From positions 849,736 through 913,735 of the forward strand of contig CAVUPM010000001.1 in the NCBI GenBank assembly GCA_963743355.1: DNA of 64,000 nucleotides, read 5' to 3'. Position numbers and translations under genes: made by a program. The notes under the pieces were generated by a model, which was not told the DNA's origin, searched no databases, and worked only from the letters and a program-made list of their open reading frames with translations. Source of the DNA: an uncultured Candidatus Rokubacteria bacterium (GTDB taxonomy: Bacteria; Methylomirabilota; Methylomirabilia; Rokubacteriales; CSP1-6). Of the stretch, positions 3,858-29,248 are shown in pieces; within the stretch, counting starts at the first letter, position 1, and each line of letters opens with the position of its first letter.

Positions 3858-3947
3858 CGGGCCGCCGTCCATGCACGCGCGGTGCCGTCGAGGCCGCCTC
3901 CGCCCCGATTTACCGGCTCCGGCAGCGGTGTGAGAGCATGGAGCGGC

Positions 3948-5735
3948 ATGCTGAATGACGTTCGGGCGTGCCTGGGGTTGCTGTCGCCGCAGGCGCGCTG
4001 GCGCTGGGCCGCGTTGATCCCGCTCGCGCTGGCCTCGGCCGCGGCGGAGGCGGTCGGCGCCGGGGCGGCGTTCGGGTTGATCACGATCCTGGGCGATCCC
4101 GCGCGGGCCGCGACCCTGCCGGTCGCCTCGTGGATCTTCCCCCACCTGCCCTCGCACGACGCCTCGACGGTCATCCTGGCCTTCACGCTGCTGGTCATGG
4201 CGTTCTACATCGCCCGCAACGCGCTGCTGGCCGTGGTGACCTGGGTGCAGGAGCAGGCGCTGAGCGTCTCCGTGCAGCAGCTCTCCCACCGCCTGCTCGC
4301 CGCCTACCTGGCCGCCCCGTACGCGTTTCACGTTCGCCACAACTCGGCGGGGCTCATCCACCGGGTGACCGACGCCGCGCACAGCGTCTTCCGCGGCGTG
4401 CTCGGCTCGCTGGTCAGCGTGACGTGCGAGGCGCTGGTCGTGGCCGGCATCGTCGTCATCCTCGCGCTGACGGCACCGGGCGTGACCCTGGTGGCGGTCG
4501 TCGTGGTGGGCGGGCTACTGCTGCTGCCGCTGACGCTGTCGCGCCACGCCACCGCGCGCTGGGGGCAGGCGGTCGCGCGGCTCGACGGCGAGACGCTGCA
4601 GACGCTGCAGCAGAGCCTGGGCGGCGTGAAGGAGGTCAAGCTCAGCGGGCGCGAGAGCTTCTTCCTCGCCCAGTTCGACGAGCGGGTGGCGGGCGCGGCG
4701 CGCCTGCGCACGCGGTACGCCGCCGTCGCCTCCACCCTGAGGATGGGGGTCGAGACCGTCTTCGTGTGCGGCCTGCTCGCGGTGAGCCTGCTCCTCACCC
4801 TCGAGAGCGGCGCCGCCGCCCTGCCGCTGCTGGGCCTCTACGCGTACGCCGGCTTCCGGGTGATCCCATCGGCCAACCGCATCATGATGTACGTCAGCGA
4901 GCTGCGCTACAGCCGTGCCTGGATCCACGACCTGCGCGACGACCTCGCCGCCCTGCCCCCGCCGGCGCCGCCGACCGGCCCCGGCGCGCCCGAGCCGATC
5001 CGCTTCACCCGCGCCGTCGCGCTCGAGGGGGTGTCCTACACCTACGCGGACGAGGCGGACCCAGTGCTGGTCGACGTGAACCTCACGATCGCCCGAGGCG
5101 AGTCGATCGGGATCGTCGGGCCGTCGGGCGCCGGCAAGAGCACGCTGGTGGACCTGCTCCTCGGCCTGCTGACGCCGACGTCCGGGCGGATCACCGTCGA
5201 CGGGCGCGCCATCACCGGCGCGCTGCGCTCGTGGCAGCGGCACATCGGCTACGTCGCCCAGGAGCCGTTCGTCCTCGACGACACGCTGCGCCGCAACGTC
5301 GCCTTCGGCGTCGCCGACGCCGAGATCGACGACCGCCGGGTGGGCGCGGCGCTGCGGCTGGCCCAGCTCGCCGACTTCGTGACGGGCCTGCCGCAGGGGA
5401 TCGACACCATGCTCGGCGAGCGCGGCACGCGGCTGTCGGGCGGGCAGCGCCAGCGGGTGGCGATCGCCCGCGCGCTCTACGACGAGCCGGAGGTGCTGGT
5501 CTTCGACGAGGCCACCTCCGCGCTCGACACGCCCACCGAGCGGGAGCTGATCGCGGCGCTGGAGGCCCTGCGCGGCGTGAAGACGCTGGTGGTCATCGCG
5601 CACCGGCTCACGACCGTGCGCCGCTGCGACCGCCTGGCCGTGCTGCGCGACGGGCGGCTGGCGGCGGTCGGGCCCTACGACGAGCTGCTCGAGCGCGACG
5701 CCGGCTTCCGCGCCATGGCCGGCTCAGCCCCGTGA
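3948..5735 (+). CDS. ABC exporter (TMD+NBD), PglK/HetA-like lipid-linked oligosaccharide flippase
   Basis: 6 TM segments; Walker A GPSGAGKST, LSGGQRQR, VFDEATSALD; GGVKEVKL and YAGFRVIPSANRI segments typical of the PglK-like subfamily; adjacent to glycosyltransferases. Confidence 0.8.
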   Translation: MLNDVRACLGLLSPQARWRWAALIPLALASAAAEAVGAGAAFGLITILGDPARAATLPVASWIFPHLPSHDASTVILAFTLLVMAFYIARNALLAVVTWVQEQALSVSVQQLSHRLLAAYLAAPYAFHVRHNSAGLIHRVTDAAHSVFRGVLGSLVSVTCEALVVAGIVVILALTAPGVTLVAVVVVGGLLLLPLTLSRHATARWGQAVARLDGETLQTLQQSLGGVKEVKLSGRESFFLAQFDERVAGAARLRTRYAAVASTLRMGVETVFVCGLLAVSLLLTLESGAAALPLLGLYAYAGFRVIPSANRIMMYVSELRYSRAWIHDLRDDLAALPPPAPPTGPGAPEPIRFTRAVALEGVSYTYADEADPVLVDVNLTIARGESIGIVGPSGAGKSTLVDLLLGLLTPTSGRITVDGRAITGALRSWQRHIGYVAQEPFVLDDTLRRNVAFGVADAEIDDRRVGAALRLAQLADFVTGLPQGIDTMLGERGTRLSGGQRQRVAIARALYDEPEVLVFDEATSALDTPTERELIAALEALRGVKTLVVIAHRLTTVRRCDRLAVLRDGRLAAVGPYDELLERDAGFRAMAGSAP

Positions 5736-6878
5736 CGTAGCCGCCGCCGCGATCACCGCCCGGAACTCCCGCACGAAGGTCTCGGTCGAGAAGCGGCGCG
5801 CCTGGACGGCGAGGCGCCCGCGCAGGTCCGCCTCCTCGCCGGGATCGCGCATGGTACGCAGGATGCTGGCCGCCGCGCTCTCCACCGTGTCGTAGCGCAG
5901 CCGCGGATCGCCCACGATCTCCACCTGGCCGCCGTCGTTGGGCACCCACACGATGCAGCCGGCGTGCACCATCTCGGCCACGACCATGCCGTAGTGCTCG
6001 TTGAGGTGGCCGTGGATGCCGTAGCGGTGCCGCGCCATCAGCGCCGCCAGCGCCTCGCGCGACAGCCCCGACTCCAGCGTGATCCACGGCCCCTCGGCGC
6101 GGACCCGGGCGGCGATGCGCTCGGCGTAGGCGCCCTCCGGCGTGCCGACGATGCGCAGCCGGGTGTCGGGGATCTCGGCCCGCACGCGGGCGAGGATGTC
6201 GATCACGCGGTCGAGCTGCTTGTCGGGCGCGATCCGGCCGACGCAGAGGAACGTGCGCTCCCGTGCCGGCCAGTCCACCGCGGGGAAGCTCCCCATGACC
6301 GGCGGGTACAGCGTGCGGGGGACGAGGCCGTAGCGCTGGTCGACGAGGCGGCCGACGTAGTCGGAGCTCACCAGCGCGGGTGTCTGGCGCATCCGCTCGT
6401 CCGAGAACTCCGCCAGCCGGATGCACAGCTCGCGGTACGCGGTAACGAGGCCCCGCCAGTGATACCAGCGTGTCTCCAGCGCCGGCCGTGGCAGCAGGTC
6501 CCATGGGTAGTTGATGTACTGCACGCCTTGGGGGCCGAAGTCGGCCTCGTTGTCGCCGGTCAGCAGCACGTCGAAGTCGCGCGCCCGGCGCTTGGCCAGG
6601 CGCAGCAGGATGGCGGTGCGCAAGAGATAGATCGGAGCCGGGATCGCCTCGATCAGCATGCGCAGCGCCGGCGCCGGCCGGGCCAGCGTGAAATCCTGGG
6701 GGCGCAGGGTGGTGCCGAAGAATTGGTTGAGGGCGTTGAGGTCCGGCCGGTGCCAGGACAGCAGCGTGACCGCGTGGTCATCCTTGAGCGCCTCGACCAT
6801 CCAGGCGGCGACGCCGGCCGAGCCGCCCGGCGGCGCCAGCTCGCGCTGCACGAGCAGGACGCGCGGCCGGCGCGTCAC
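5724..6878 (-). CDS. GT4 glycosyltransferase, ALG11-like (putative alpha-1,2-mannosyltransferase)
   Basis: GTG start overlaps the upstream TGA; QYINYP, LYPP, VGRIAPDK, GIHGHLNEHYGMVVAEMVHAG..PNDGG resemble ALG11 YVHYP / GLHxMWNEHFGIxVVExMAAG. Confidence 0.7.
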   Translation of the reverse strand: MTRRPRVLLVQRELAPPGGSAGVAAWMVEALKDDHAVTLLSWHRPDLNALNQFFGTTLRPQDFTLARPAPALRMLIEAIPAPIYLLRTAILLRLAKRRARDFDVLLTGDNEADFGPQGVQYINYPWDLLPRPALETRWYHWRGLVTAYRELCIRLAEFSDERMRQTPALVSSDYVGRLVDQRYGLVPRTLYPPVMGSFPAVDWPARERTFLCVGRIAPDKQLDRVIDILARVRAEIPDTRLRIVGTPEGAYAERIAARVRAEGPWITLESGLSREALAALMARHRYGIHGHLNEHYGMVVAEMVHAGCIVWVPNDGGQVEIVGDPRLRYDTVESAAASILRTMRDPGEEADLRGRLAVQARRFSTETFVREFRAVIAAAATSRG

Positions 6879-7822
6879 CGCACGCGCAGGGTCGTGAGCG
6901 CCAGCAGCGAGAAGGAGATCGAGACGCCGTAGAGCAGCAGCACGGCCTTGCGGTGCGACAGGCCGAGGCCGAGCAGGCGGTGGTGCACGTGCTGCTGGTC
7001 GGCGAGGAACACGTGGCGCAGCCCCTGCCCGCGCAGGCGGCGCACCACCGAGTGCAGCGTCTCGGAGATCGGAAGGGCGAAGAGCAGCAGCGGTCCGATC
7101 ACCACCAGCGCGGTCGCGCCCTTCTGGAAGCTGGTGATGGCGGTCACCGCCAGCACGTAGCCGACCACGAGGCTGCCGGAGTCGCCGAGGAAGATGGTCG
7201 CGGGGTTGAAGTTGTAGGGCAGGAAGCCGCACAGCGCCCCCAGCAGCACCACGAGCAGCATCCCGCCCTGGACGTCGTCGCGCGCCAGCGAGACCACCGC
7301 GCACGTCGCCGCCGCGATGATGGCCAGGCCGGTGGCGAGGCCGTCGAGCCCGTCCATGACGTTGAAGGCGTTGGTGAGCCCGACGAGCCACAGGATGGTC
7401 AGCGGCACCGCGAGCAGGCCGAGCCCGAGCGTCGAGCCGAAGAACGTGACGTGCTCGATGCGGACGCCGAGGGCAACGGTGACGCCGGCGCCGGCGAGCT
7501 GGACCGCGAGCTTCACCCGCGCCGGCAGCGGCCGCACGTCGTCCCAGAGCCCGATCCCGAAGACGAGCGCGCCACCGAGCAGGACGGGCAGCCATGACTG
7601 CACGTCGGCGGCACTCGCGTGGCCGGTGGCGGCGGTCGCCGCCAGCACGAGCACCATGGCGAGGACGACGCCGACGCCCCCGACGCGCGGGATCGAGACG
7701 GTGTGGATCTTGCGCCCGCCCGGCGCGTCGACCAGGTTGAAGCGGCGCGCGAGCGCGCGCACGACCGGCGTGAGGGCGAGCGCCAGCAGCGCCGCCGCCC
7801 CGATCAGCAGCAGGTGGATCAC
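6875..7822 (-). CDS. Polyprenyl-phosphate GlcNAc-1-phosphate transferase (WecA/TagO type, PNPT family; ALG7-equivalent step)
   Basis: DAPGGRKIH..PRVGG, GLWDD, NAFNVMDGLDGLA, FLPYNFNPATIFLGDSGS, DQQHVHHRL; multi-TM. Confidence 0.9.
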   Translation of the reverse strand: MIHLLLIGAAALLALALTPVVRALARRFNLVDAPGGRKIHTVSIPRVGGVGVVLAMVLVLAATAATGHASAADVQSWLPVLLGGALVFGIGLWDDVRPLPARVKLAVQLAGAGVTVALGVRIEHVTFFGSTLGLGLLAVPLTILWLVGLTNAFNVMDGLDGLATGLAIIAAATCAVVSLARDDVQGGMLLVVLLGALCGFLPYNFNPATIFLGDSGSLVVGYVLAVTAITSFQKGATALVVIGPLLLFALPISETLHSVVRRLRGQGLRHVFLADQQHVHHRLLGLGLSHRKAVLLLYGVSISFSLLALTTLRVR

Positions 7823-8919
7823 CAGCGGTCCGTCATCAAGATCTCGCAGTCGGCCACGATGCGCGCCGCGGCGTCCGGCCGCGCGAGCCGCCGCGCGGCG
7901 GCAGCGGCAGCCGTCCAGCCCGCCTCGCCGAGGAGCGCGGCCACCCGGGCGGCGAGCGGGTCGCGCCGCCACTCGGCTTCGCGGACGACGACCCCGGCAC
8001 CGGCGGCGGCGAAGGCGACCGCGTTGGCGGCCTGGTGATCGCCGGGGGCATCGGTCAGCGGCACCAGCAACGCGGGCACGCCGGCGGCGGCGACCTCGGC
8101 AATCGTACCCGCGCCCGAGCGGGCGACGACGAGGTCGGCCCAGCGATACGCGCTGGCGATCTCGTCGAGGTACGGCGCCACCGTCGCCTTCACGCCGGCC
8201 AGCCGGTACGCGTGGGCCACCCAGTCCGCGGCGAGCTGCCCCGACTGGTGCAGCACCTCGACGGCGACGCCGCGCCGCTCGACAGCGGCCAGCAGGTCAG
8301 GGACGCGCTCGGCCAGGAACCGCTCGCCGCGCGTGCTGCTCAGCACCAGCACGCGCGCGAGGCGATCGCGGTCGGGCGCCGCCCGCCGCTCGCCGGCCAG
8401 CGCGGCGATGTCGGCGCGCACGGGGTGGCCGGTCACCAGCGGGTCGCGGGCCGCCAACGCCGGCGCGGCGGCGGCGAACCCCAGGTAGACGCGGTGCGCG
8501 AATGGCGCGAGCAGGCGGTTGGCGAGGCCGGGAACGACGTTCGCCTCGTGGATCACGACCCGCGCCCCCAGCGTGCGCGCGGCCAGCAGGATCGCGCCCG
8601 ACGCGTAGCCGCCGACACCGAGGACCAGCCGGGTGTGCCGCGCCCGCAGCACCCGTCGCGCCTGGAGCAGGCCGGTCACGACCCGGCCCGCCGCGGCGAG
8701 CCGGGCGCCGGGCCCCACGTTCACGAGCGGCGAGGCGCTCACCGGCTCCAGCGCGTAGCCGGAGCGGCCGAGCAGTCGCGCCGCCAGCGGATCGAGCGCC
8801 CCGGCGAAGCGCACCTCCACGTCGGCATACCGTGCGCGATAGGCCTCGGCGATCGCGAGGGCCGGGTACACGTGGCCGGCGGTGGGACCGACGGCGATCA
8901 GGAGGCGTCGGCGCGGTAT
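7819..8919 (-). CDS. MurG-like GT28 GlcNAc transferase outside a dcw cluster (putative ALG13/14-equivalent)
   Basis: GPTAGHVYPALA, GGYAS, HEANVVPGLANR, RSGAGTIAE, DHQAANA; start inferred at an ATA codon 6 nt after GAGGAG. Confidence 0.8.
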   Translation of the reverse strand: MPRRRLLIAVGPTAGHVYPALAIAEAYRARYADVEVRFAGALDPLAARLLGRSGYALEPVSASPLVNVGPGARLAAAGRVVTGLLQARRVLRARHTRLVLGVGGYASGAILLAARTLGARVVIHEANVVPGLANRLLAPFAHRVYLGFAAAAPALAARDPLVTGHPVRADIAALAGERRAAPDRDRLARVLVLSSTRGERFLAERVPDLLAAVERRGVAVEVLHQSGQLAADWVAHAYRLAGVKATVAPYLDEIASAYRWADLVVARSGAGTIAEVAAAGVPALLVPLTDAPGDHQAANAVAFAAAGAGVVVREAEWRRDPLAARVAALLGEAGWTAAAAAARRLARPDAAARIVADCEILMTDRW

Positions 8920-8949
8920 GGTAGGCTCCTCGTGGCTTCGCAGCGTTCT

Positions 8950-10173
8950 ATGCGCGTCACCACGGTGGTTCTCGGCGATCTCGGGCGCAGTCCCCGCATG
9001 CAGTACCATGCGGAAGCCCTCGCGGCCCATCACGTCGACGTGGACGTCGTCGCCTGCGGGGGCAGTGCCGTTCACGCGGAGCTGCGCGTCCATCCGCGGA
9101 TCACCTGTCACTTGCTGCCTCCGGCACGCGAGCGATCCCTGCCCCGCGGGCTGCTCTTGCCGGCCGCCATCTGGAGGGCCGTCGTCCAAGCACTCTGGCT
9201 AGTCTGGATGTTCGTGGCCGTTTTGCGCAAGCCTGACGTGATCCTCGTCCAGAACCCACCGGCCATCCCGACCCTCCTGGTGGTTCTGACCGCCGCCCGG
9301 CTCAGGGGCGCGCGCCTCGTCGTGGACTGGCACAACCTCGCGTGGGCGGTGCTGGCCCTCGGCATCGGCGCCCGCCACCCGGGCGTGACCCTGGCCCGCT
9401 GGTACGAGGGCGTCCTCGGCCGCCGCGCCGACGCCCACCTGTGCGTGTCGGACGCGCTCGCGGCCGAGCTGACGCGCTGGGGCATGCGCCCGGTCAGCGT
9501 CCTGCGCGACCGTCCAGCCGCGCGCTTCGCGCCGCTCGACGCCGCCGCCCGGCACGTCGTGCGCCGCCGGCTCGTGGCCACGCTCGGCCTGGGAGACCGG
9601 GAGCCGGCAATCGTCGTGAGCCCGACCTCGTGGACGCGCGACGAGGACTTCGAGCTGCTGCTCGAGGCGGTTCGACGGTGCGAGGCGCTGGTGCAGGGTC
9701 GCGCGTTTCCCGAGGTGCTCGTGCTGCTCACCGGACGCGGCGCCCGGCGGGCGGGTTTCGAGGCGAGGGCGGCCGCGCTGGCCGGCCGGCGCATCCACGT
9801 GCGGACCACGTGGCTCGAGCCCGACGACTACCCGCGCGTGCTGAGCGCCGCCGACCTCGGCCTCTGCCTGCATCGCTCGGCCTCGGGTCTCGATCTGCCG
9901 ATGAAGATCGTCGACCTGCACGGGGCCGGGCTGCCGGTGTGCGCGCTCGACTACGGGCCGTGCCTGGACGAGATGCTCCGCCACGACGACACCGGCCTGC
10001 GCTTCGCCGACGCCGAGACGCTGGCCCGCCAGTGGGTGGCCCTGCTGGCGACGTTCCCCGGCCCCACGCCGGAGCTCGACCGGCTGCGCGCCAACGTGGA
10101 GAAGGCCCGCGGCACCACGTGGCGCGCGGGCTGGGAGGCCGAGGCCCGGGAGATCCTGCTCGCGCATGCGTGA
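8950..10173 (+). CDS. alg1: ALG1-like GT33 beta-1,4-mannosyltransferase
   Basis: VLGDLGRSPRMQYHA, LVQNPPAIPTL, VDWHN, VSPTSWTRDEDF, WLEPDDYP..LSAADLGLCLHRSASGLDLPMKIVD match eukaryotic ALG1 signature blocks. Confidence 0.92.
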   Translation: MRVTTVVLGDLGRSPRMQYHAEALAAHHVDVDVVACGGSAVHAELRVHPRITCHLLPPARERSLPRGLLLPAAIWRAVVQALWLVWMFVAVLRKPDVILVQNPPAIPTLLVVLTAARLRGARLVVDWHNLAWAVLALGIGARHPGVTLARWYEGVLGRRADAHLCVSDALAAELTRWGMRPVSVLRDRPAARFAPLDAAARHVVRRRLVATLGLGDREPAIVVSPTSWTRDEDFELLLEAVRRCEALVQGRAFPEVLVLLTGRGARRAGFEARAAALAGRRIHVRTTWLEPDDYPRVLSAADLGLCLHRSASGLDLPMKIVDLHGAGLPVCALDYGPCLDEMLRHDDTGLRFADAETLARQWVALLATFPGPTPELDRLRANVEKARGTTWRAGWEAEAREILLAHA

Positions 10174-12421
10174 GCGCCTGGCCGCGCGGGGCCACTGGTG
10201 GCTGGTGGCCGCCCTCGTCGTCGTCGCCTTCCTGGCCCGCACGGTGTTCCTCTTCGGCGCGGTGTTCACCAGCGCCGGCGTGAACTACCAGGACAGCGAC
10301 GCCTGGTACCACATGCGCCTCATCGAGAACCTCACGCGCAACTTCCCGCACCGCGCGAGCCTCGATCCGTACCTCGGCGCCGACGCGCCGGTGGTCGCGG
10401 TGCCGCTGCTCTTCGATCTCGCGGTCGGCGGGCTCGCGTGGGTGCTCGGGCTGGGCGCGCCGTCCACGCGAACGGTGGAGGTGGTGGGCGCACTGGTGCC
10501 GCCGATCCTCGGCGCGCTGACGCTCGTGCCGGTCTTTCTCATCGGCGAGCGGCTCTTCGACCGCCGCACCGGTCTGCTGGCCGCCGGCCTGCTGGCGATC
10601 ATGCCCGGCCAGTTCCTGGCGCGCTCCGTCCTCGGCTTCGCCGACCATCACGTGGCCGAGGCCTGCCTCACCGCGCTCACCGTGCTCGCGTGTCTGTACG
10701 CGCTCGACGCCCAGACACCGCGCCGGCGGCTCCTCGGGGCGGCGCTGACCGGCGTGGCGCTCAGCACCTACCTCATGGCCTGGAGCGGCGGCGCCTTGCT
10801 CGTCTTCGTGCTGTGCGCGTGGGGGGCGACGCAGTACATCCTGGACGACTTCCATCGCGTGGCCGACGACCGCGTGCTGCCGGTGCTGCTGCCGGCGCTG
10901 GCGATCGCGGTGGTCGTCCTGCTCGGATTGCAAGATCGCAATCTCTGGCGCTTCGCCATCCAGGTGACCTCGGTCGTGGCCGGCCTGGTGTTCGTCGTGG
11001 CGATGGCGGCCGGCCGCCGCCTCCTGCGCGCGCTGTCGGCCCCGCGCGGCGCGCTGCTGGCGTGCGCGGTCGTCATCGCCGTCGTGGGTACGGTGCTCTT
11101 CACCCTCGTGGCGCGCGATCTGACGGCACGCATCCTGTCCGACCTGCAGCGCTTCCGGCCCGGCCACACCGGGTTCACCGTGAGCGAGGTGCGCCCGCTG
11201 CTGCTCATGACGGGCTCGCTGTCCTTCGCGGTCCCCTTCGGCGTGTTCGGGCCGGCGTTCTTCGTCAGCCTGCCCGCGCTCGGCTGGCTCGCCTGGACGG
11301 CCGCGCGCACGGCCCGGCCCCCGCTGGTGCTCCTGGTGATCTGGAGCGTGCTGATGTACGCCGCCACGCTCGGGCAAAACCGCTTCGGCTACTACCTGAA
11401 CCTCGACCTCGCGCTGCTGGCCGGCTGGGCGTGCGGGATGGCGCTGGCCTGGGGCTGGGCGCCGCCGGCCGCCGCCCGCTCGCGCGCCGACGCGCGACGC
11501 GCGCGCGATCGCGCCGGCGCGCTCCCCGGCGGCTCCTGGGGGCTGCTGCGCCGCCGCATCGCGGCGGTGGCGGCCGTCGTCGCGGTCGTGTTCGCGCCCA
11601 GTGCCCTGGTCGCGCGCCCGATGGCCAGCAACAACCTGGGGCTCAGCGACGGCTACCGCGCCTCGCTCGAGTGGCTGCGCCGCAACACGCCGGAGCCGTT
11701 CCCCGATCCGGACTACTACTACGCGCGCTATCGCGCCGGCCAGACGCTGGCCCCGGCCTACACGGTGATGTCCTGGTGGGACTACGGCTACGAGATCATC
11801 CGCCTGGGGCGGCGGGTGCCGGTCGCCAACCCCACCCAGGCCGGCGCCGACGTCGCCGGGCGCTTCTTCACGGCGACCGACGAGGCGGAGGCGGCGAAGA
11901 TCCTCGACGAGCACAAGGCGCGCTACGTGGTCGCCCACGGTGAGGTGCCGATCCTGCCGCGCGGCGGGCTCGTGCAGGGCAAGTTCGAGACGCTGGCGGC
12001 GTGGGCGGGCAAGGACATCAACCGGTACTGGGAGACGTTCCTCACCAAGGACGCCAAGGGCGCACTCGGCCCGCTGGTCCTGTTCCACCCGGAGTACTAC
12101 CGGACACTGGCCGTGCGCCTCTACGTGTACGGCGGCGCCGCGGCGGTCCCCCAGGACACGACGTACGTCGTCGCCTACGTCGAGCGGCAGATGCCGGACG
12201 GCACGCGCGGCAAGGAGATCCTGGAATCGCGGCGGTTCAAGACCTACGAGGGGGCCGTCGCCTATCTCGACCGCTTCGGTCACACCGGGCGCACCATCGT
12301 CGGCCTCGATCCCAAGCAGACGCCGGTCCCGATCGAGCGGCTGACGCGCTTTCGCTTCCTGCACGAGTCGCCGGGCGCGGCGCCGGCTGTGCGCATCTTC
12401 GAATACCCCGGCCGCAGCTGA
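10166..12421 (+). CDS. aglB: STT3/AglB family oligosaccharyltransferase (archaeal AglB-like)
   Basis: DSDAWYH, GFADHH, TVSE, QNRFGYY, SWWDYG, VANPTQAG; polytopic N-terminal region and soluble C-terminal domain. Confidence 0.93.
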   Translation: MRERLAARGHWWLVAALVVVAFLARTVFLFGAVFTSAGVNYQDSDAWYHMRLIENLTRNFPHRASLDPYLGADAPVVAVPLLFDLAVGGLAWVLGLGAPSTRTVEVVGALVPPILGALTLVPVFLIGERLFDRRTGLLAAGLLAIMPGQFLARSVLGFADHHVAEACLTALTVLACLYALDAQTPRRRLLGAALTGVALSTYLMAWSGGALLVFVLCAWGATQYILDDFHRVADDRVLPVLLPALAIAVVVLLGLQDRNLWRFAIQVTSVVAGLVFVVAMAAGRRLLRALSAPRGALLACAVVIAVVGTVLFTLVARDLTARILSDLQRFRPGHTGFTVSEVRPLLLMTGSLSFAVPFGVFGPAFFVSLPALGWLAWTAARTARPPLVLLVIWSVLMYAATLGQNRFGYYLNLDLALLAGWACGMALAWGWAPPAAARSRADARRARDRAGALPGGSWGLLRRRIAAVAAVVAVVFAPSALVARPMASNNLGLSDGYRASLEWLRRNTPEPFPDPDYYYARYRAGQTLAPAYTVMSWWDYGYEIIRLGRRVPVANPTQAGADVAGRFFTATDEAEAAKILDEHKARYVVAHGEVPILPRGGLVQGKFETLAAWAGKDINRYWETFLTKDAKGALGPLVLFHPEYYRTLAVRLYVYGGAAAVPQDTTYVVAYVERQMPDGTRGKEILESRRFKTYEGAVAYLDRFGHTGRTIVGLDPKQTPVPIERLTRFRFLHESPGAAPAVRIFEYPGRS

Positions 12422-12446
12422 GCTCGACCGGACTACTCTCATGACG

Positions 12447-12543
12447 CGTGAGCCGAGCGGGTGGCGCCGGGTGCGGCCCCTCCCCCGGCGCGCCATCGGA
12501 AAGCGCGCCGGGGGGAGGGGCCGCACCCGGCGCCACCCGCCCG
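12447..12543. repeat. Long hairpin (~37-bp arms), short derivative of the 32.8-kb MITE-like element; possibly a bidirectional terminator
   Basis: GCGGGTGGCGCCGGGTGCGGCCCCTCCCCCGGCGCGC and its near-perfect reverse complement, between convergent aglB and alg2. Confidence 0.8.
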
Positions 12544-12582
12544 GGGATACGCCTACGTTCTTGTAGCAGTCTCGGTGAGCAG

Positions 12583-13779
12583 CTACCGCGGGCGAGTGAG
12601 GGCGCGCAGCGAGGTTTCGAGGCGGTCGCCGAATGCGCGGCGAGAGAAGCGCTTGCGCACGTGCGTCCAGCCGGCCTGGCCCATGCGCTGGGCGGCGGCG
12701 GGATCGCCGAGCGCTTTGGCCAGGGCGTCGGCGAACGCTTCGGGACGCGGGTCCGCGAGCCAGCCGGTTTCGCCGTGCACGATCGTCTCCGTCGGGCCAC
12801 CGCGGTTCACGGCGATCACGGGCCGGGCGGCGGCCATCGCCTCCAGCGGCACGAGGCCGAAGTGCTCGGCCAGCGGCGTGTAGACGACGCAGGCCGCGCG
12901 GGCGAGCAGCGCGCGCCGCTCGGCGTCGGATGGTGAGCGCACGAGCGAGACGTGGCCCTCGAGGCCGAGCCCAGCCGCGCGGGCCTCGAGGTCGCGCGCC
13001 AGCGCCTGGGACTCGCCCAGGCGCGGGTCGACGTGGCCGGCCAGCACGAGACGGACGGCGGCGAACGCCGCCGGCGCCAGGCGCGCGCGCAGCGCGGCCA
13101 CGGCGTCGATCGCGAGCGCCAGGTTCTTGCCGGGATCGAACCGGTTGACGGACAGCACCAGCGCCTCGCCCGCGGGCGCCGGCGGCGGCGTGTCGGCGAC
13201 CGCCACGCCCGGATACACCACCTCGATGCCCCCGATCGGCAGCCGCGGGAACGTCGCCCGCACGACGGAGGCGCTGAAGCGGCTGTTGACCAACACGCGG
13301 TCGGCGGCCTGCAGCCCGGCCGCTTCCAGGCGGTCGATCGGCGCCCGGTAGAGCGCGTAGAGCCCGCGCCGGCGCGGCGCCAGCAACAGGTCGGGAAAGT
13401 TGCAGTAGACGGCGACCGGCACCCGCACGAGGCGTCGCAGGAGCGGGATCACGTGCGGCACGAGGTCGCACAGAACGATGTCGGGCGTCGGCACCGTCCG
13501 GGCCAGCGCGCGCGCCACCCACGCGGCGCGCACGATCGCCGCCGGCGCCCGCAGCCGCTGGACGAGCTGCGTCGGCAGCAACCGCCCGACGGCGACGACG
13601 CGCACGAGCCCCGCGCGAACCTCGTCGAGCTGCGCTTCCTTGCGGTCCCCCACGAATAGTGTGACCGCGTGACCGCGGGCGCCAAGCTCGAGCGCGGCGT
13701 CCACCACGAGGCGCTCGGCCCCACCGATGCCCAGGGCGGGTCGCAGGAAGGCGATGTTGAGCGGTCGATCGCGGGTCAT
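12583..13779 (-). CDS. alg2: ALG2-like GT4 alpha-1,3/1,6-mannosyltransferase
   Basis: FLRPALGIGGAERLVVDAA, YCNFPDLLL, LYRAPIDRLE, VNSRFS, SVNRF..KNL, YTPLAEHFGLVPLEAM..PVIAVNRGGPTETI are collinear with eukaryotic ALG2. Confidence 0.9.
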   Translation of the reverse strand: MTRDRPLNIAFLRPALGIGGAERLVVDAALELGARGHAVTLFVGDRKEAQLDEVRAGLVRVVAVGRLLPTQLVQRLRAPAAIVRAAWVARALARTVPTPDIVLCDLVPHVIPLLRRLVRVPVAVYCNFPDLLLAPRRRGLYALYRAPIDRLEAAGLQAADRVLVNSRFSASVVRATFPRLPIGGIEVVYPGVAVADTPPPAPAGEALVLSVNRFDPGKNLALAIDAVAALRARLAPAAFAAVRLVLAGHVDPRLGESQALARDLEARAAGLGLEGHVSLVRSPSDAERRALLARAACVVYTPLAEHFGLVPLEAMAAARPVIAVNRGGPTETIVHGETGWLADPRPEAFADALAKALGDPAAAQRMGQAGWTHVRKRFSRRAFGDRLETSLRALTRPR

Positions 13780-13971
13780 CGAGTCGTCGGAGCCCGGTAC
13801 GAGCTTATCCGCAGCCCGCTCGGCCACCGTCGATATTCGGTAGTTCCAGCGGATAGTTAAGCTTTGGCGGGATCGGCGGGGTCGCCTGCTACGATGAAGT
13901 GTTCTTCGTCCTGAACACGGCGACGCCTTCCCGGGTCGCAGGGCCGGTACGTCCGGCGGGAGCGACTGATC

Positions 13972-16900
13972 TTGGGGGGTGTCGTGGGACCGGTCCTTCC
14001 ACGCGTCGCGTACGTCGTCCTCATCCTCGCCGTCCTCGCGAGCGCCGGCTTGGCCGACGCCGGCGTCACCCCGTTCTGGCCGGAGCTCGGCGGCTCGGGC
14101 AGCGGCACCGGGGTGAGCCAGACGCCCAGCCCCAAGGGGGTCTTCGACGGCTCGATGGCCGTGGGCGGCGACGGCCGGCCGGTGATCGTGTACACCGAGT
14201 ATCCGGACGGGACGTCGGCCCAGGGCCCCATCATCGTGAAGCGATGGACGGGCTCGACGTGGGAGACTCTCGGCGGGTCGGGCCTCGGGCCGGGGTACGA
14301 GCCGCAGGTGCAGATTTCGTCGAGCGGCTCGATCTATGTCGCCTGGCTCACCGATGACGTCGACGGCAACACCGAGGTTCGCCTGCGCGTGCGGACAGGC
14401 TCGACCTTCGACGAGCTCGACGACTCCGACTCGCCCGGCGGCGTCTCGGGGCCCAACGGCGGCATCACGCCTCCCTTCTCGCTCGCCCTCAACGCGTCGG
14501 GCAACCCGATCGTGGCGTTCCTCGGCGTCGCGGAGACGGGCATCCTGGAAATGACGACACCCGCGATCGTCGACTCGACCTTCCAGGTCTACGTGCGGCG
14601 GTGGACAGGCACCGCGTGGGAGTTCGTGGGCGGCGGCTTCGCGGGTGACGACGGCTTCTCGGGCGGCGGCGCCAGCAACGCCCGCAGCTTCACGAGCCCT
14701 CTCGGGGACATCATCCACGACGCCGACACGCCCTCGCTGGCCGTGGACGAACACGGCGAGCCGGTCGTGGCGTTCACCTACTACACGTCGATCGCCGGCT
14801 CGCCGGTGGCCAACACGGACGTCTACGTCACCCGCTGGAACGGCTCGGCGTGGGTGCCGGTCGGTCCCGCGGTGCCGGCCGCGGACGGAGCGATCGGGCG
14901 CGGCGGCGCCGGCGGAATCAGCGCCAGCACCAGCGGCTCCTTCAACCCCTCGCTCGCCGCCGATGCGACGGGCAAGCTCGCGCTGGCCTGGGAAGAGGAG
15001 CCGCTGAGCGGCGGCGTCTACATCTGGGTGCGCACGTGGAACGGCACGACCTGGGTGCAGCTCGCCAACTCGGCGGCCGGCGGCGGCCTCACCCAGGTCG
15101 ATACGTTCAACAATCTGCCCCGGATCGCCATCGACACGAACGGACGTCCCATCGTCACCTGGGCGGCGCTCGTCGCGATCGAGAACCCCACGCAGATCTT
15201 CGTCCGCCGCTGGAATGGGACCAATGCATGGGACGAGCTCGGCTTCCACTCCGCCCGCGACGCCGGCGTCAGCGACGCTGCCGTTGACGCGCTCGCGCCC
15301 GCGTTGGCCCTCACACCGCCCGGTGGCACGGTGGACGCCGGCATCCCGACGATCGCCTGGCTCGACCTGCAGGAGGGCTCCTTCCAGGTCTTCCTGAGGC
15401 AGTTCTTCTCGGGGCCGAGCTTTCCGCTGACGACGCGAGTCAGCGGCAGCGGCACGCTGACTAGCGACCCGATCGGGGTGGAGTGCTCGACCAACGCGTG
15501 CGCGGCGTCGTTCCCGAGCGGGACCAGCGTCACCCTCCTGCCCGAGGCCGGATCCGGATCGGCCTTCACCGGGTGGGCAGGCGGGTGCACGGGCAGCGGC
15601 CCCTGCAGCGTGGCCATGACGGCCGCGCGCAGCGTGAACGCGAGCTTCGTCGGGGTCCGCGGCTTGACGCTCGCCGTCGCGGTTCCGGCGGGCACCCCCG
15701 TGCAGGGCACGGTCGGCAGCGTCGTCGGGCCCGCGGGCACCTGCCTCTTCGGCGGCAGTGCCGCGTGCGTCTCCGACGTGCTGCACGGCACGCGCGTGAT
15801 CCTGCAGGCGACGCCGCCGGCGGGCAATCGGTTCCTCAACTGGACGGGCGGGCCGTGCAACGGCCGCACGAACGCCACCTGCGATTTCGTCATGAACGCC
15901 AACGTGAGCACGACGGCGCTCTTCCGGGCCGTCACCGGCGTGGCCGTGGTCAAGGTGGGCAACGGCGTCGGGACCGTCACCGGGACGGGCATCAGCTGCG
16001 GCACCGATTGCTTCCAGGAAGTCTTCACGGGCACCAGCGTGACCCTGACGCCGGTGGCGGCCACGGGCAGCAGCTTCCTCGGCTGGACGGGTGACGTCTG
16101 CAACGGCCAGGTGGCCGGCGCCTGCGTGGTCCCGACCGTCGGGCAGTTGAACCGGAGCGTCACCGCGACGTTCCAGCTCAAGAGACACGCGCTGGCGGTC
16201 ACGGCTGCCAGTACCGGCGCGGCGGTCGGCTTTGCGACCAGCAGCCCCGCCGGTATCAACTGCGGCGGTCCCGACCATACACAGTGCTCGGTCGACTACA
16301 ACTACGGGACCACCGTGGTGCTGACGCCCTCCCCGGGTGCGGACAGCAAGCTGACGTCGTGGACCGGCTGCACGAGCCTGAACGGCTCGGTCTGCAACGT
16401 GCTCTTGACGGCCAACCGTACCGTCACCGCGCGCTTCGGGGAAGCGCGCACCCTGGATGTCCAGGCCTCCGGCAACGGCAGCGGCCGCATCGTGTCGGCA
16501 ACAGCACCCGGCCTGACCTGCGTCAGCAACTGCTCGGTGTCCCAACTCTATGCCGTCAACACCTCGGTCATCCTCACGCCGCAGGCGGCGGTTGGCACCA
16601 CCTTCCAGTGGGTGGGCGGCATCTGCAGCGGCAAGGCGAGCTGCACCGCTCTCATGAGTCAGAACCGCACGGCCACCGGCCAGTTCACGCTGAACCGCCA
16701 CTCGCTGGCCGTGTTCAACCGGCCCAGCGGGAGCGTCGTCAACCTCCCGCCGTTGCCGGGCGGCACGATCAACTGCGGCAGCGGCATCTCCGTCTGCGCG
16801 GGGGTTTTCGACTACGGCACGCCGGTCACCCTGCGGGCCGCGCCGAACGACGGGTTCATCTTCGTCAACTGGACCGGCGTCACGTGCGCGGGGGGGGCGA

Positions 16901-19395
16901 CCAATGCGACGTGCGCGTTCCCGCTGCGCGCCAACGTCACCGTGACGCCCAACTATCGAGCCCGTACACTGCTCACGATCGTCAAGGACGGCACCGGCGC
17001 CGGTACGGTCTCCGGGCCCGGCATCAGCTGCGGCGCCGACTGCTCGGAGGCGGCGTTCGACGGCCGCGCGGTAACGCTGCGGGCCACGCCCGCCGTGGGA
17101 TCACGTTTCCTCGACTTCGGCGGCGCCTGCGTGTCGAACACCTCGGCGTGCACCTTCCTGCCGGCCGGGAACAATCAGACCGTCACCGCAACGTTCCAGC
17201 TGATCTCCTACACCGTGACCATGCTGTCCAGGGCCAACGGAGGCGCCGTCTCCACCAACACGCTGCCGGACCCCATCGCCTGTGGCGCCGGCAGCGGCGA
17301 CTGCCTGGCGACGCTCGACTTCGGCACCCAGGTGGTGCTGCAGGCCACGCCCATCACCGGCAGCCGGTTCGTCAACTGGACCGGCACCGTCTGCAACGGC
17401 TCGACGAACGCGACCTGTTCCTTCCGCATCCCGGCCGCCAACGTGTCGGTGTCGCCCAACTTCAAGGACGTCACCGCCCTCACCCTGACCAAGAGCGGCG
17501 CCGGCGGCACGATCGTGTCCACGCCGGCCGGTATCAGCTGCGCCGGCGCGGCGTGCACCACCAGGACGTTCGACTTCGCGCGGGGCATCCTGGTCAGGCT
17601 CACGCCGACGACGGCGGTCGGCTGGAACTTCGACGGGTTCTCCGGCGACTGCTCGGGCGCCACCTGCGCGGTCAACGCGAGCGCGCCGACCGCGCTGGTC
17701 GCCGCCAGCTTCTCGATCCAGCAGCGGCGGCTCACGGTCACCGTGGTCGGCCAGGGCGGCGTGAGCGGCCCCGGCGCTGCCTGTGACACGGGGAGCACGC
17801 CCTGCGCCCTGGACTTCGACTACGGCACCAACCTGACGCTGACCGCCACCGCCGCCGCCGGCCATCGCTTCACCGGCTGGACGCAGAACTGCGCGGGCGT
17901 TCTCGTCTGCAACAACCTCATGACCGTCAACCGCTCGGTCACGGCGACGTTCAAGCCCCAGTTCGGGCTCACGGTCACCAAGCCGGGCAACAGCACCGGC
18001 ACCATCACGGCCGCGGCCAGCCCGGCCGGGATCCCCCCATTCAGTTGCGGTGTCGGCACCAACCTGTGCAGCAGCACCTACCTGGGCGGCCAGGTCGTCA
18101 CGCTGACGCGCAGCGCGCCGATCGTCTCGACGACGTTCCGCTGGGGCGGTGACTGCGCGCTCCGCGGCACCAACGCGACCTGCGCGCTGCCGCTGAACGC
18201 CAACGCCTCGGTGATCGCCGACTACAGCCTGAAGCAGCTCGGCCTCACCGTCGTCAAGGTCGGCGCGCCGCTCGGCACCGTCACCGGCCTGGCGGGCGGG
18301 ATCGCCTGCGGCAGCGACTGCACCGACGTGGTGAACTACGGCACGCTCGTGACGCTGACCGCGATCCCGAACACGCCGCCAAATCCAAACCCCGCATCCG
18401 AGTTCGTGTCGTGGGCGGGCTGTGCGACCGCCGCCACCAACGCGTCGTGCTCCTTCACGATGACCGCGAACAAGACGGTGACGGCCACGTTCCGGCCCCT
18501 CGTGAGCAGCGTCGCCCTGGACACGCTGAGCCCCAGCACGACGCTGGCCGCGGGTGGCGTCCGGCAAGTTTCGGCCACCGCGACGTTCACGGATGACACT
18601 CAGCAGGACGTCACGACTCAGGCAGCGTGGGTCTCGCTGACGCCGACGATCGCCACGGTGAACACCACCGGGCTCGTCACGGGCAAGCTCGCCGGCAACG
18701 CCAGCGTCCGGGCGACGTTCCGGTCGATCCAGAGCGCCCCCATGACGATCCCGGTGGACTCGCTGCAAGCGCTCACCGTATCGTGCGTCCCCTACGGGCA
18801 GGACGGTGGGCTGACCTGCCTGCCGAGCGCTGTGAACTTCAGCGTCCAGTGCGAGGCGCGTGGCAGGTTTCCGAGCACGGGGGTGCAGGACATCGACATC
18901 ACGGACCAGGCCACGTGGGTCTCGAGCCACCCCACGATCGCGCGGTCAACTGGTTTCGTCGGATTCAACGGGCCGATTCGCCAATCGTTCCGGATCGTGG
19001 GGAACGGGACGGCAACCCTGCGGGCCACGCAGAGCGGCAAGACCTCGCCGACGACCGGTGCGCTCGGCACCGATGCCTGGGTCGTGCAGGGCGTGGCATC
19101 GACGGTGACCAGCATCCAGGTCACACCACCGACGGGACAGGTGAGCGTCGGCGCGAATCCGCTGCTATTGAAGGCAACCGCCGCCCTGAGCAGCGTGGCG
19201 CCCGGGTGTACGTCACCGCCCTCGCGTGACTTCTCGACGGTGGTGAGCTGGGAGAGCAGCGACGAGGATCGCGCGGACGTCAGCTTCTTCGGCGAGGTCA
19301 CGGGTCTCGACCCCGGCCCCGTGACCATCACCGCGACCTACGGGAACGGCATCGTGGTCCCTCCCGACACCGCCTCCATCACCGTTGCGCCGTAG
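13972..19395 (+). CDS. Large secreted surface/adhesin-like protein: beta-propeller-like N-terminus, ~12 Cys-containing InlB-B-like repeats, ~3 Big_2-like domains; sequon-rich
   Basis: Signal peptide ending ..LADA; repeated xxRWNG/WTG blades; repeats of type G.V...GI.C...C....GT.V.L.A.P..G..F..W.G.C......C........V.A.F; C-terminal DVT..A.W.S..P.IATV..G.V. Confidence 0.85.
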   Translation: MGGVVGPVLPRVAYVVLILAVLASAGLADAGVTPFWPELGGSGSGTGVSQTPSPKGVFDGSMAVGGDGRPVIVYTEYPDGTSAQGPIIVKRWTGSTWETLGGSGLGPGYEPQVQISSSGSIYVAWLTDDVDGNTEVRLRVRTGSTFDELDDSDSPGGVSGPNGGITPPFSLALNASGNPIVAFLGVAETGILEMTTPAIVDSTFQVYVRRWTGTAWEFVGGGFAGDDGFSGGGASNARSFTSPLGDIIHDADTPSLAVDEHGEPVVAFTYYTSIAGSPVANTDVYVTRWNGSAWVPVGPAVPAADGAIGRGGAGGISASTSGSFNPSLAADATGKLALAWEEEPLSGGVYIWVRTWNGTTWVQLANSAAGGGLTQVDTFNNLPRIAIDTNGRPIVTWAALVAIENPTQIFVRRWNGTNAWDELGFHSARDAGVSDAAVDALAPALALTPPGGTVDAGIPTIAWLDLQEGSFQVFLRQFFSGPSFPLTTRVSGSGTLTSDPIGVECSTNACAASFPSGTSVTLLPEAGSGSAFTGWAGGCTGSGPCSVAMTAARSVNASFVGVRGLTLAVAVPAGTPVQGTVGSVVGPAGTCLFGGSAACVSDVLHGTRVILQATPPAGNRFLNWTGGPCNGRTNATCDFVMNANVSTTALFRAVTGVAVVKVGNGVGTVTGTGISCGTDCFQEVFTGTSVTLTPVAATGSSFLGWTGDVCNGQVAGACVVPTVGQLNRSVTATFQLKRHALAVTAASTGAAVGFATSSPAGINCGGPDHTQCSVDYNYGTTVVLTPSPGADSKLTSWTGCTSLNGSVCNVLLTANRTVTARFGEARTLDVQASGNGSGRIVSATAPGLTCVSNCSVSQLYAVNTSVILTPQAAVGTTFQWVGGICSGKASCTALMSQNRTATGQFTLNRHSLAVFNRPSGSVVNLPPLPGGTINCGSGISVCAGVFDYGTPVTLRAAPNDGFIFVNWTGVTCAGGATNATCAFPLRANVTVTPNYRARTLLTIVKDGTGAGTVSGPGISCGADCSEAAFDGRAVTLRATPAVGSRFLDFGGACVSNTSACTFLPAGNNQTVTATFQLISYTVTMLSRANGGAVSTNTLPDPIACGAGSGDCLATLDFGTQVVLQATPITGSRFVNWTGTVCNGSTNATCSFRIPAANVSVSPNFKDVTALTLTKSGAGGTIVSTPAGISCAGAACTTRTFDFARGILVRLTPTTAVGWNFDGFSGDCSGATCAVNASAPTALVAASFSIQQRRLTVTVVGQGGVSGPGAACDTGSTPCALDFDYGTNLTLTATAAAGHRFTGWTQNCAGVLVCNNLMTVNRSVTATFKPQFGLTVTKPGNSTGTITAAASPAGIPPFSCGVGTNLCSSTYLGGQVVTLTRSAPIVSTTFRWGGDCALRGTNATCALPLNANASVIADYSLKQLGLTVVKVGAPLGTVTGLAGGIACGSDCTDVVNYGTLVTLTAIPNTPPNPNPASEFVSWAGCATAATNASCSFTMTANKTVTATFRPLVSSVALDTLSPSTTLAAGGVRQVSATATFTDDTQQDVTTQAAWVSLTPTIATVNTTGLVTGKLAGNASVRATFRSIQSAPMTIPVDSLQALTVSCVPYGQDGGLTCLPSAVNFSVQCEARGRFPSTGVQDIDITDQATWVSSHPTIARSTGFVGFNGPIRQSFRIVGNGTATLRATQSGKTSPTTGALGTDAWVVQGVASTVTSIQVTPPTGQVSVGANPLLLKATAALSSVAPGCTSPPSRDFSTVVSWESSDEDRADVSFFGEVTGLDPGPVTITATYGNGIVVPPDTASITVAP

Positions 19396-29169: not shown

Positions 29170-29248
29170 GGCTTCATCCGTCCCGGCCGGCCATCCCTTC
29201 CGTTTCGCCCTGGACCCCGACCAGCGTAGAGTCTCGCGGGGAGGATCG

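Follow-up and report, generated by a model that had tools for sequence, protein, structure and literature searches.

A 64,000-nt stretch of a Candidatus Rokubacteria contig (CAVUPM010000001.1, assembly GCA_963743355.1, positions 849,736–913,735 of the forward strand; hereafter the window, to which all coordinates refer) contains, at 12583–13779 on the minus strand, a gene that on sequence grounds encodes a genuine ALG2-family glycosyltransferase of family GT4, a soluble or peripheral GT-B enzyme. In eukaryotes, ALG2 is the GT4 enzyme GDP-Man:Man1GlcNAc2-PP-dolichol α-1,3/1,6-mannosyltransferase (Man, mannose; GlcNAc, N-acetylglucosamine). Frame analysis around the bacterial gene resolved a nine-part locus at 3.9–19.4 kb, and the explanation that we favour, and consider reasonably probable, is that the enzyme performs one step of a self-contained lipid-linked-oligosaccharide N-glycosylation pathway encoded there. 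Judged by the families of its products, the locus very probably builds a lipid-linked oligosaccharide of the GlcNAc2-Man type for transfer by an archaeal-type AglB oligosaccharyltransferase (OST) to a surface protein. As far as our literature search reached, the occurrence of ALG1/ALG2-like enzymes, an AglB-type OST and a sequon-rich protein in one locus is undescribed. Bacterial homologues of ALG2 are not in themselves a novelty: they are covered by a 2025 preprint (Xu et al., bioRxiv, 10.1101/2025.10.15.682550) and by automatic JGI names.

The G+C content of the window is 70–75%, and long spurious open reading frames (ORFs) are accordingly abundant. The naive ORF at this position (12583–16701, minus strand) spans 1372 aa, and the preliminary description of the sequence had proposed that the gene lies hidden at the 3′ end of a spurious ORF. 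Codon composition bears this out: G+C at third codon positions (GC3) is 0.92 within 12586–13779 and 0.61 in the same frame upstream (13780–16701), where an opposite-strand gene that overlaps the ORF (13972–19395) has a GC3 of 0.93. Orthologues measure 395–402 aa and cover 97–100% of the shorter product. We therefore rejected the 1372-aa ORF as a high-GC artefact; the real gene comprises its last 398 codons. Pfam recognizes Glyco_transf_4 (residues 18–193) and Glycos_transf_1 (residues 201–370, 1.3e-32), an architecture that identifies the predicted protein as a GT4 enzyme of the GT-B type. None of its 25 NCBIfam matches reaches the family cut-off, the best being the exopolysaccharide GT4 EpsE (91 bits, far under cut-off), and a PDB sequence search returned no ALG2 among 31 matches. 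The protein contains no hydrophobic segment (maximum KD19 = 1.38). The ratio of dN to dS against five orthologues is 0.16–0.30, indicating that the gene is under purifying selection.

Several searches place the protein in the ALG2 family. Exhaustive searching of 1.84 billion representatives with HMMER yielded 624 hits below 1e-30, and a search with one representative (P0198) retrieved many proteins named ALG2 by NCBI/UniRef from animals, oomycetes, Capsaspora, stramenopile algae and others. Alignment to eukaryotic ALG2 by BLASTP runs end to end, with 42% identity to the Anolis protein (2e-90) and 44% to that of Capsaspora (8e-99). In the reciprocal direction, Capsaspora ALG2 retrieves the ALG2-like gene from the Rokubacteria genome at 1.3e-83, the next of 21 hits scoring 1.5e-12. 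Neighbours in the ESM Atlas are clusters automatically named ALG2, both bacterial (most commonly Acidobacteriota) and eukaryotic, and orthologues carry the automatic JGI name 'alpha-1,3/alpha-1,6-mannosyltransferase'.

Two trees refine this placement. In a FastTree tree of 149 rows (25 of 150 representatives having been dropped as shorter than 340 or longer than 560 aa, with the other GT4 of the locus as sole outgroup), the 14 labelled eukaryotes fall in one 64-row clade (support 98) and the query in a separate 14-row clade (support 99). In a quick IQ-TREE run of 72 rows, a branch with SH-aLRT 97 splits the ALG2-like sequences from the outgroup of seven GT4 paralogues of the same genome; eukaryotes lie within a 22-row clade (97), and the query groups with its close hits (95) outside that clade. 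The branch of GT4a, the other GT4 of the locus, is very long (6.08), and the placement of this protein is unreliable. Both trees thus indicate membership of the ALG2 family in the wide sense and not of the eukaryotic clade, with the query in an unlabelled, presumably prokaryotic grade. The earlier label of bacterial ALG2 homologue holds to that extent: full-length identity, reciprocal best hit and retained motifs mark a genuine ALG2-family GT4, but one that lies outside the eukaryotic ALG2 clade.

The motifs quoted in the preliminary description are all present and collinear with those of ALG2 (FLRPALGIGGAER, VYCNFPD, YRAPIDRLE, SVNRFDPGKN and YTPLAEHFGLVPLEA). We scored the diagnostic positions in a close set of 116 sequences (the query and 115 of the 120 hits listed, 330–560 aa), in 125 of 150 representatives, and in a eukaryote-centred set comprising 116 of 117 sequences:

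Residues 17–23, G-rich loop GIGGAER: G17, G19 and G20 in 113 of 116 close sequences, the other three having gaps.
Residue K218, Lys of NRF..KN: 116 of 116 close sequences.
Residues 305–313, EX7E motif EHFGLVPLE: E305 and E313 in 116 of 116 close sequences.
Residue V310, within EX7E: 114 of 116 close sequences.
His of CHFPD: close set His 73, Asn 27, Tyr 15, Ser 1; representatives His 125 of 125; eukaryote-centred set His 116 of 116.
First residue of HPD: close set Arg 95, His 18; eukaryote-centred set His 114 of 116.
Asp of HPD: eukaryote-centred set Asp 114 of 116.
ERKKN region: close set DPGKN; eukaryote-centred set ERKKN.

The features taken to mark ALG2 membership, namely GIGGAER, EX7E with its Val, and the Lys, are thus all found in the protein; GIGGAER and EHFG[IL]VPLE with Val are also the motifs that the 2025 preprint reports as needed for activity. 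At family-invariant sites of the N domain the query departs from the family, with R13 and A15 (HPD to RPA) and N127 (CHFPD to CNFPD), so that both substitutions noted earlier are real departures. Together with the divergent gene layout described below, every element of that original observation is present in the sequence. The protein resembles eukaryotic ALG2 in its full-length collinearity at 42–44% identity, in the retained G-rich loop, Lys and EX7E with Val, and in having an ALG1-like partner nearby. It differs in lying outside the eukaryotic clade and in carrying RPA, CNFPD and DPGKN for HPD, CHFPD and ERKKN. It also lacks a hydrophobic C-terminal tail, present in 5 of the 13 other sequences of alignment A1, and its lipid carrier would presumably be a bacterial polyprenol instead of dolichol.

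The proposed pathway is defined by the genes that surround the ALG2-like gene:

3882–5735, plus strand: ABC exporter half-transporter (transmembrane domain and ATPase; Pfam ABC_membrane and ABC_tran), MsbA/PglK/HepA-like, proposed flippase.
5724–6878, minus strand: GT4a, a GT4 of unassigned specificity, 384 aa, last gene of the minus-strand operon (Pfam Glycos_transf_1, 3.7e-14).
6875–7822, minus strand: polyprenyl-phosphate N-acetylhexosamine-1-phosphate transferase of the WecA/ALG7/AglH family, 315 aa with about 10 hydrophobic segments, proposed initiating enzyme (Pfam PF00953, 2.7e-40).
7819–9009, minus strand: MurG paralogue of family GT28, 396 aa, proposed second-GlcNAc transferase and functional analogue of ALG13/ALG14 (Pfam Glyco_transf_28 and Glyco_tran_28_C).
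8950–10173, plus strand: ALG1-like glycosyltransferase, 407 aa, proposed β-1,4-mannosyltransferase (from orthologue names and Atlas neighbours).
10166–12421, plus strand: archaeal-type oligosaccharyltransferase AglB/STT3, 751 aa, multi-pass membrane part and periplasmic core domain (Pfam STT3 and AglB_core-like).
12583–13779, minus strand: ALG2-family GT4 glycosyltransferase, 398 aa (ATG at 13779, coding 12586–13779, stop 12583–12585).
13780–13971: divergent intergenic region, 192 bp, between the ALG2-like and surface-protein genes.
13972–19395, plus strand: secreted repeat protein, 1807 aa, proposed N-glycosylation substrate (Pfam).

The OST is the sole STT3 gene in the genome, and its affinities are archaeal. 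It passes the NCBIfam model TIGR04154 (archaeo_STT3) over residues 12–747 with 477.7 bits against a cut-off of 450, and its best PDB matches are 'transmembrane oligosaccharyl transferase' chains 3waj and 5gmy (1.2e-50, residues 11–618); its 10 PDB hits (E ≤ 0.01) also include eukaryotic STT3 chains, at about 1e-7 to 1e-8, and none of them is a PglB chain. Among 14 control genomes, the same Pfam STT3 model was positive only in the 4 archaea. The motifs DSDAWY (aa 43), ADHH (159), TVSEV (338) and WWDYG (537) each align with a counterpart in 3waj; we take WWDYG, the acidic loops and the Glu of the TIXE/SVSE-type motif to be catalytic. To our knowledge, the characterised members of the AglB subfamily are N-OSTs. 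An association with archaeosortase A and PGF-CTERM, which the name of TIGR04154 would suggest, was rejected: the exosortase/archaeosortase family PF09721 has no match in the OST's own 95%-complete genome, and the surface protein lacks a hydrophobic segment at its C terminus.

The divergent surface protein is probably the substrate of this OST and not only a co-regulated neighbour. It comprises nine InlB B-repeat/Flg_new_2 units, two Big_2 domains, a BNR-like N terminus and a signal-like hydrophobic N-terminal segment (residues 1–35), which is its only hydrophobic segment, so that no C-terminal anchor is seen. Thirty-six N-X-S/T sequons take up 45% of its 80 Asn residues, whereas 2000 composition-preserving shuffles gave 16.1 ± 3.6 sequons with a maximum of 30; many of the sequons occupy equivalent positions in repeats and are therefore not independent counts. 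The 13 other window proteins that we scored hold 0–2 sequons each. The excess recurs in five near-full-length orthologues from five loci (39–49% identical), which have 27–38 sequons and z values of 4.1–6.8. None of the 36 sequons has Asp or Glu at position −2, the hallmark of the extended PglB sequon.

The surface-protein and ALG2-like genes were suspected to share a regulatory region. They are indeed divergent across the 192-bp gap, but a scan of 12400–14100 found no sigma-70-like promoter or terminator. Two blocks in the gap, CTTCATCGTAGCAG and GCGGATAAGCT, are common to the window and loci L009, L010 and L014 and do not occur in the more distant L011 and L012; with so few and such closely related sequences they may be neutral. 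About 5 kb downstream of the surface-protein gene, at 24494–25725 on the minus strand, lies a gene for an ECF sigma factor and, after it, one for a ChrR-like anti-sigma factor (zf-HC2 and Cupin_7).

Identifying the other enzymes required the naive gene calls to be corrected. Two ORFs that appeared to encode oversized GT4 proteins, 5724–7595 (minus strand) and 8035–10173 (plus strand), were rejected as chimeric because in each the GC-frame profile changes frame or strand partway; rescanning the indicated frames uncovered the PF00953 gene, concealed in a naive 623-aa ORF, and the GT28 MurG-like gene. The minus-strand operon runs from the MurG-like gene through the PF00953 gene to GT4a with a GTGA start/stop overlap at each junction, and on the plus strand the ALG1-like and OST genes overlap by 8 nt; such overlapping start and stop codons are typical of operons. 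The MurG-like and ALG1-like genes are divergent, and with the sole available canonical starts their 5′ ends share about 60 nt (8950–9009), an arrangement kept in L014 and L095, and the true start of the MurG-like gene may be non-canonical.

The PF00953 protein, one of three in the genome, matches WecA best among NCBIfam models, at 120.9 bits and below the cut-off of 326. The MurG-like protein scores 234.2 bits with TIGR01133 (murG), under the cut-off of 250.25, while a second copy at G000:C2:2558292-2559386 passes with 266.4 bits; the copy in the locus is therefore a paralogue. For the ALG1-like protein, many orthologues among the 120 matches listed carry the JGI name 'beta-1,4-mannosyltransferase', and its nearest Atlas clusters include eukaryotic proteins named 'Beta-1,4-mannosyltransferase' and 'Chitobiosyldiphosphodolichol beta-mannosyltransferase' at 0.98–0.99; a BLAST statement in the 2025 preprint adds to this indirect evidence. 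A PDB sequence search with it gave 0 hits, and a predicted complex with the ALG2-like protein (score 0.00) is evidence neither way. GT4a (GC3 0.95, with a GTG start at 6878 that overlaps the stop of the upstream gene) has no NCBIfam family above cut-off, and its sole PDB sequence hit is 2f9f, named wbaZ-1 mannosyltransferase (4.6e-4). We rejected its assignment as ALG11: no ALG11_N Pfam match appears at E ≤ 0.01, and it is only about 25% identical to the ALG2-like protein. The ABC exporter matches HepA (best), MsbA and PglK (3e-77) among NCBIfam models, all under their cut-offs, and is 79–87% identical and syntenic in L009, L010, L012 and L095.

Enzymes of these families also admit another use of the locus. 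WecA-type initiation, GT4 enzymes and MsbA-like exporters are typical of polysaccharide loci too, and the sub-threshold best matches of the ALG2-like protein to EpsE and of the exporter to HepA point the same way. The lipid-linked sugars could then serve a polysaccharide or other glycoconjugate (capsule, exopolysaccharide, lipopolysaccharide-like or secondary cell-wall polymer), with the STT3 protein as a ligase or transferase for a non-protein acceptor or for O-linked sites. We consider this unlikely: no Wzx, Wzy, Wzz or polymerase-type gene turned up across the window, the OST passes the AglB subfamily model and retains WWDYG, and the sequon excess of the surface protein is conserved.

The arrangement recurs beyond the window. 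The order ABC exporter, GT4a, PF00953, GT28, ALG1-like, OST, ALG2-like and surface-protein gene is found in L009, L010, L011, L012, L014 and L095, complete in some and interrupted by a contig end in others. In two other Rokubacteria genomes the locus has the same flanks and lies in the interior of contigs 2.4 Mb and 0.63 Mb long. This bears on whether the ALG2-like gene might be an inactive or decaying relic, or the locus archaeal or eukaryotic DNA that was mis-binned. The loss of an otherwise invariant His and a negative assay reported for homologues from the same phylum (see below) would fit such an origin, as would the presence in the assembly of at least one multiply frameshifted gene, a thiolase at about 27981–29267. 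Yet the ORF is intact and its dN/dS is low; the G+C and GC3 (0.92–0.98) of the locus match those of flanking genes; and trigger factor, ClpXP and a class A penicillin-binding protein (PBP) lie in the same window, the remainder of which is bacterial housekeeping. With the long contigs of the two other genomes, these observations make a relic or a mis-binned locus highly improbable.

The thiolase gene (27981–29267, plus strand) appears to be split across frames: translation from the ATG at 27981 starts typically, turns into Arg/Pro/Gly-rich nonsense, becomes sensible again briefly at about 28590–28660 and is then lost once more, with Pfam Thiolase_N and Thiolase_C falling on the adjacent stop-to-stop frames 28084–28623 and 28624–29169. 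It is either a pseudogene or the product of assembly indel errors.

Parts of the locus also appear in unrelated DNA. A metagenome scan with the alignment returned 80 loci, its patterns being too general, and only L014, L015 and L016 among them carry, in prokaryote-like DNA, ALG2-like matches that are full-length and at least 47% identical; matches in L017–L019, L022, L029 and L033 were split or weak. The unrelated contig L016 (GC 0.56; 5402–13016) places side by side a Stealth gene, a GT28 gene, a gene for an 890-aa STT3/PglB-core protein, an ALG2-like gene (48% identity to that of the window) and an ABC exporter (44%); the 13 kb covered showed neither an ALG1-like nor a PF00953 gene. Its Stealth gene is of the hexose-1-phosphoryltransferase type, and a DDE transposase gene and a gene with an FGE-sulfatase domain lie upstream. 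On another unrelated contig, L015 (GC 0.59), ALG1-like, ALG2-like and ABC genes stand in a row. The ABC exporter lies directly downstream of the ALG2-like gene in both contigs. Representatives P0203 and P0141 consist of ALG1-like and ALG2-like halves and P0132 of PF00953 and ALG2-like domains; the corresponding genes are thus adjacent and co-oriented, whether these are true fusions or merged gene calls.

In G116, a more distant member of the Methylomirabilota, locus L094 (G116:C75, 8020–12974) holds an AglB-core OST, 39% identical to that of the window, adjoining a MurG-like GT28 gene. GT28 thus adjoins the OST in L094 as it does in L016. L094 also includes an unassigned 534-aa ORF and a Mutator-family transposase gene, is without ALG1- or ALG2-like genes, and looks like a smaller or different OST locus.

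Several observations weigh against an N-glycosylation pathway that builds the ALG2 product. The CHFPD His, retained in 241 of 241 other sequences, is replaced in many of the 116 close ones; HPD reads R-P-G/A in most of these, and ERKKN reads DPGKN. Because the clade has replaced residues that are otherwise invariant, the enzyme may differ in its acceptor, its donor or the second transfer. The GDP-mannose pyrophosphorylase model TIGR01479 finds no gene over its cut-off and gives two partial hits of 97 and 91 bits. The distribution is narrow: of 121 genomes sampled from the phylum, three contain the ALG2-like gene (E ≤ 1e-40), all of the window's genus, and six the OST, including all four other genomes of the genus as well as G116. 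The two genus-mates without an ALG2-like hit may owe its absence to fragmentation, since the contig of G043 ends 219 nt beyond the OST and the OST match of G092 lies at a contig end. The 2025 preprint (10.1101/2025.10.15.682550) reports that yeast was not complemented by MeALG1 or MeALG2, its homologues from Methylomirabilota (alg2-delta in the case of MeALG2), and that MeALG1 gave no product in vitro; it does not list MeALG2 among the productive homologues. Both proteins may belong to a clade other than that of the window protein. In another class of the phylum, the S-layer protein of Methylomirabilis lanthanidiphila was found to carry no glycan (Gambelli et al. 2021, PMC8671808).

The most substantial alternative that follows keeps the cluster and its OST pathway and shifts the specificity of the ALG2-like enzyme, which would be monofunctional or would use another acceptor core or another nucleotide sugar, so that the glycan would not be branched Man3GlcNAc2. 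It is this clade specifically that has lost the invariant residues of the N domain, and the change from His to Asn arose within the genus, since the CHFPD position is His in L011 and L012 and Asn in the window, L009, L010 and L014. The operon further holds an additional GT4 of unassigned function, GT4a, and the Methylomirabilota homologues were negative on a eukaryotic-type acceptor in the preprint. On the other hand, the donor motifs of the C domain are unchanged, as tabulated above, the ALG1-like and GT28 genes nearby are consistent with the canonical acceptor, and negative heterologous assays can result from folding, temperature or lipid. Weighing these, we regard a shifted specificity as rather unlikely. 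For the branched trimannosyl core in particular, the donor-side motifs and the ALG1-like neighbour speak in favour, and the N-domain losses and the negative assay of a phylum-mate against. A chitobiose-mannose core becomes more plausible because the neighbouring GlcNAc-1-P transferase, GT28 and ALG1-like enzymes would make the acceptor of ALG2 and an OST lies nearby.

From the family assignments, the conserved gene order and the sequon excess, we infer the chemical steps, donor, linkages, lipid and substrate protein of the favoured N-glycosylation pathway. The WecA/ALG7-like enzyme would place GlcNAc-1-P onto polyprenyl phosphate, the MurG paralogue would add a second GlcNAc, and the ALG1-like enzyme a β-mannose. 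One or two α-mannoses would follow from the ALG2-like enzyme, and GT4a may add something further. The glycolipid would then be flipped by the ABC exporter, and the archaeal-type AglB would move the glycan to Asn in N-X-S/T of the 1807-aa protein and possibly of other proteins.

Comparison with known systems sets this pathway apart from each. The Campylobacter pgl locus encodes PglC, PglA/J/H/I, PglK and PglB and makes a bacillosamine-based heptasaccharide. The window shares with it a bacterial operon that encodes an initiating phosphoglycosyltransferase, GT4 enzymes, an ABC flippase and an STT3-family OST; it differs in that the OST matches AglB and eukaryotic STT3, the sequons are without an acidic −2 residue, initiation is by PF00953 and the predicted core is GlcNAc2-Man. 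An engineered Escherichia coli pathway to Man3GlcNAc2 combines yeast Alg13/14, Alg1 and Alg2 with a bacterial OST. It unites the same logical set of activities in one bacterium, whereas the window locus would be natural, with bacterial enzymes and an AglB-type OST. Archaeal AglB N-glycosylation (3waj and 5gmy; euryarchaeal in TIGR04154) shares with the window the OST type, the plain N-X-S/T sequon and a large surface-protein target, here a candidate. It differs in that the window belongs to a bacterium that encodes MurG, trigger factor and a class A PBP and in which no archaeosortase was found, and in that the enzymes building the glycan are ALG1/ALG2-like.

The 2025 preprint (10.1101/2025.10.15.682550) provides the closest biochemical context. 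It reports 3,676 bacterial ALG2 and 204 bacterial ALG1 homologues and shows the G-rich loop GIGGAER to be necessary for activity. ALG2 homologues of Gammaproteobacteria and Polyangia complement yeast and make Man2-3GlcNAc2 in vitro, with one weak case from Deltaproteobacteria; ALG1 activity is described for Gammaproteobacteria, Polyangia and Binatia and not for Deltaproteobacteria or Methylomirabilota. Across these ALG2 and ALG1 homologues, those of Gammaproteobacteria, Polyangia and Binatia gave Man1-3GlcNAc2-PP-phytanyl in vitro and complemented yeast. GaALG2, PoALG2 and BiALG1 of that study share family and signature motifs with the window protein; the active enzymes come from other phyla, and those from Methylomirabilota were inactive there. 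The same text states that archaea lack ALG1 and that archaeal ALG2 is inactive, and argues for a bacterial origin of ALG1 and ALG2, which would have joined archaeal enzymes at eukaryogenesis, where Lombard 2016 had argued for mostly archaeal origins of eukaryotic N-glycosylation. In its main text 'gene cluster' and 'operon' do not occur, and AglB figures in the reference list only, so that the window locus, with its OST, initiating enzymes, flippase and candidate substrate, is absent from that text. Besides this preprint, our search, whose coverage did not extend to subscription journals, found no papers linking an OST to Rokubacteria, Methylomirabilota or Binatia.

A bolder extension is that eukaryote-type GlcNAc2-Man(n) N-glycans are a native product of a Rokubacteria genus, which would attach them to a giant surface protein by means of a single operon uniting ALG1/ALG2, a MurG-derived analogue of ALG13/14, a WecA/ALG7-type initiator and AglB. 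We think this possible but doubtful. If true, the chimeric enzyme set now ascribed to mixing at eukaryogenesis exists pre-assembled in a free-living bacterium, and the cytosolic half of the eukaryotic pathway could derive from clusters of this kind or have a living model in them. The locus makes the debated origin of eukaryotic N-glycosylation directly testable and gives bacterial ALG homologues a physiological role, a matter outside the 2025 preprint. It also offers a compact, all-prokaryotic candidate toolkit for producing eukaryote-like core N-glycans in bacteria, although the substitutions and the negative assay in the literature caution that its product could be something other than Man3GlcNAc2. 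For the organism itself, a member of an uncultured and abundant soil lineage, the locus suggests that a surface protein is glycosylated.

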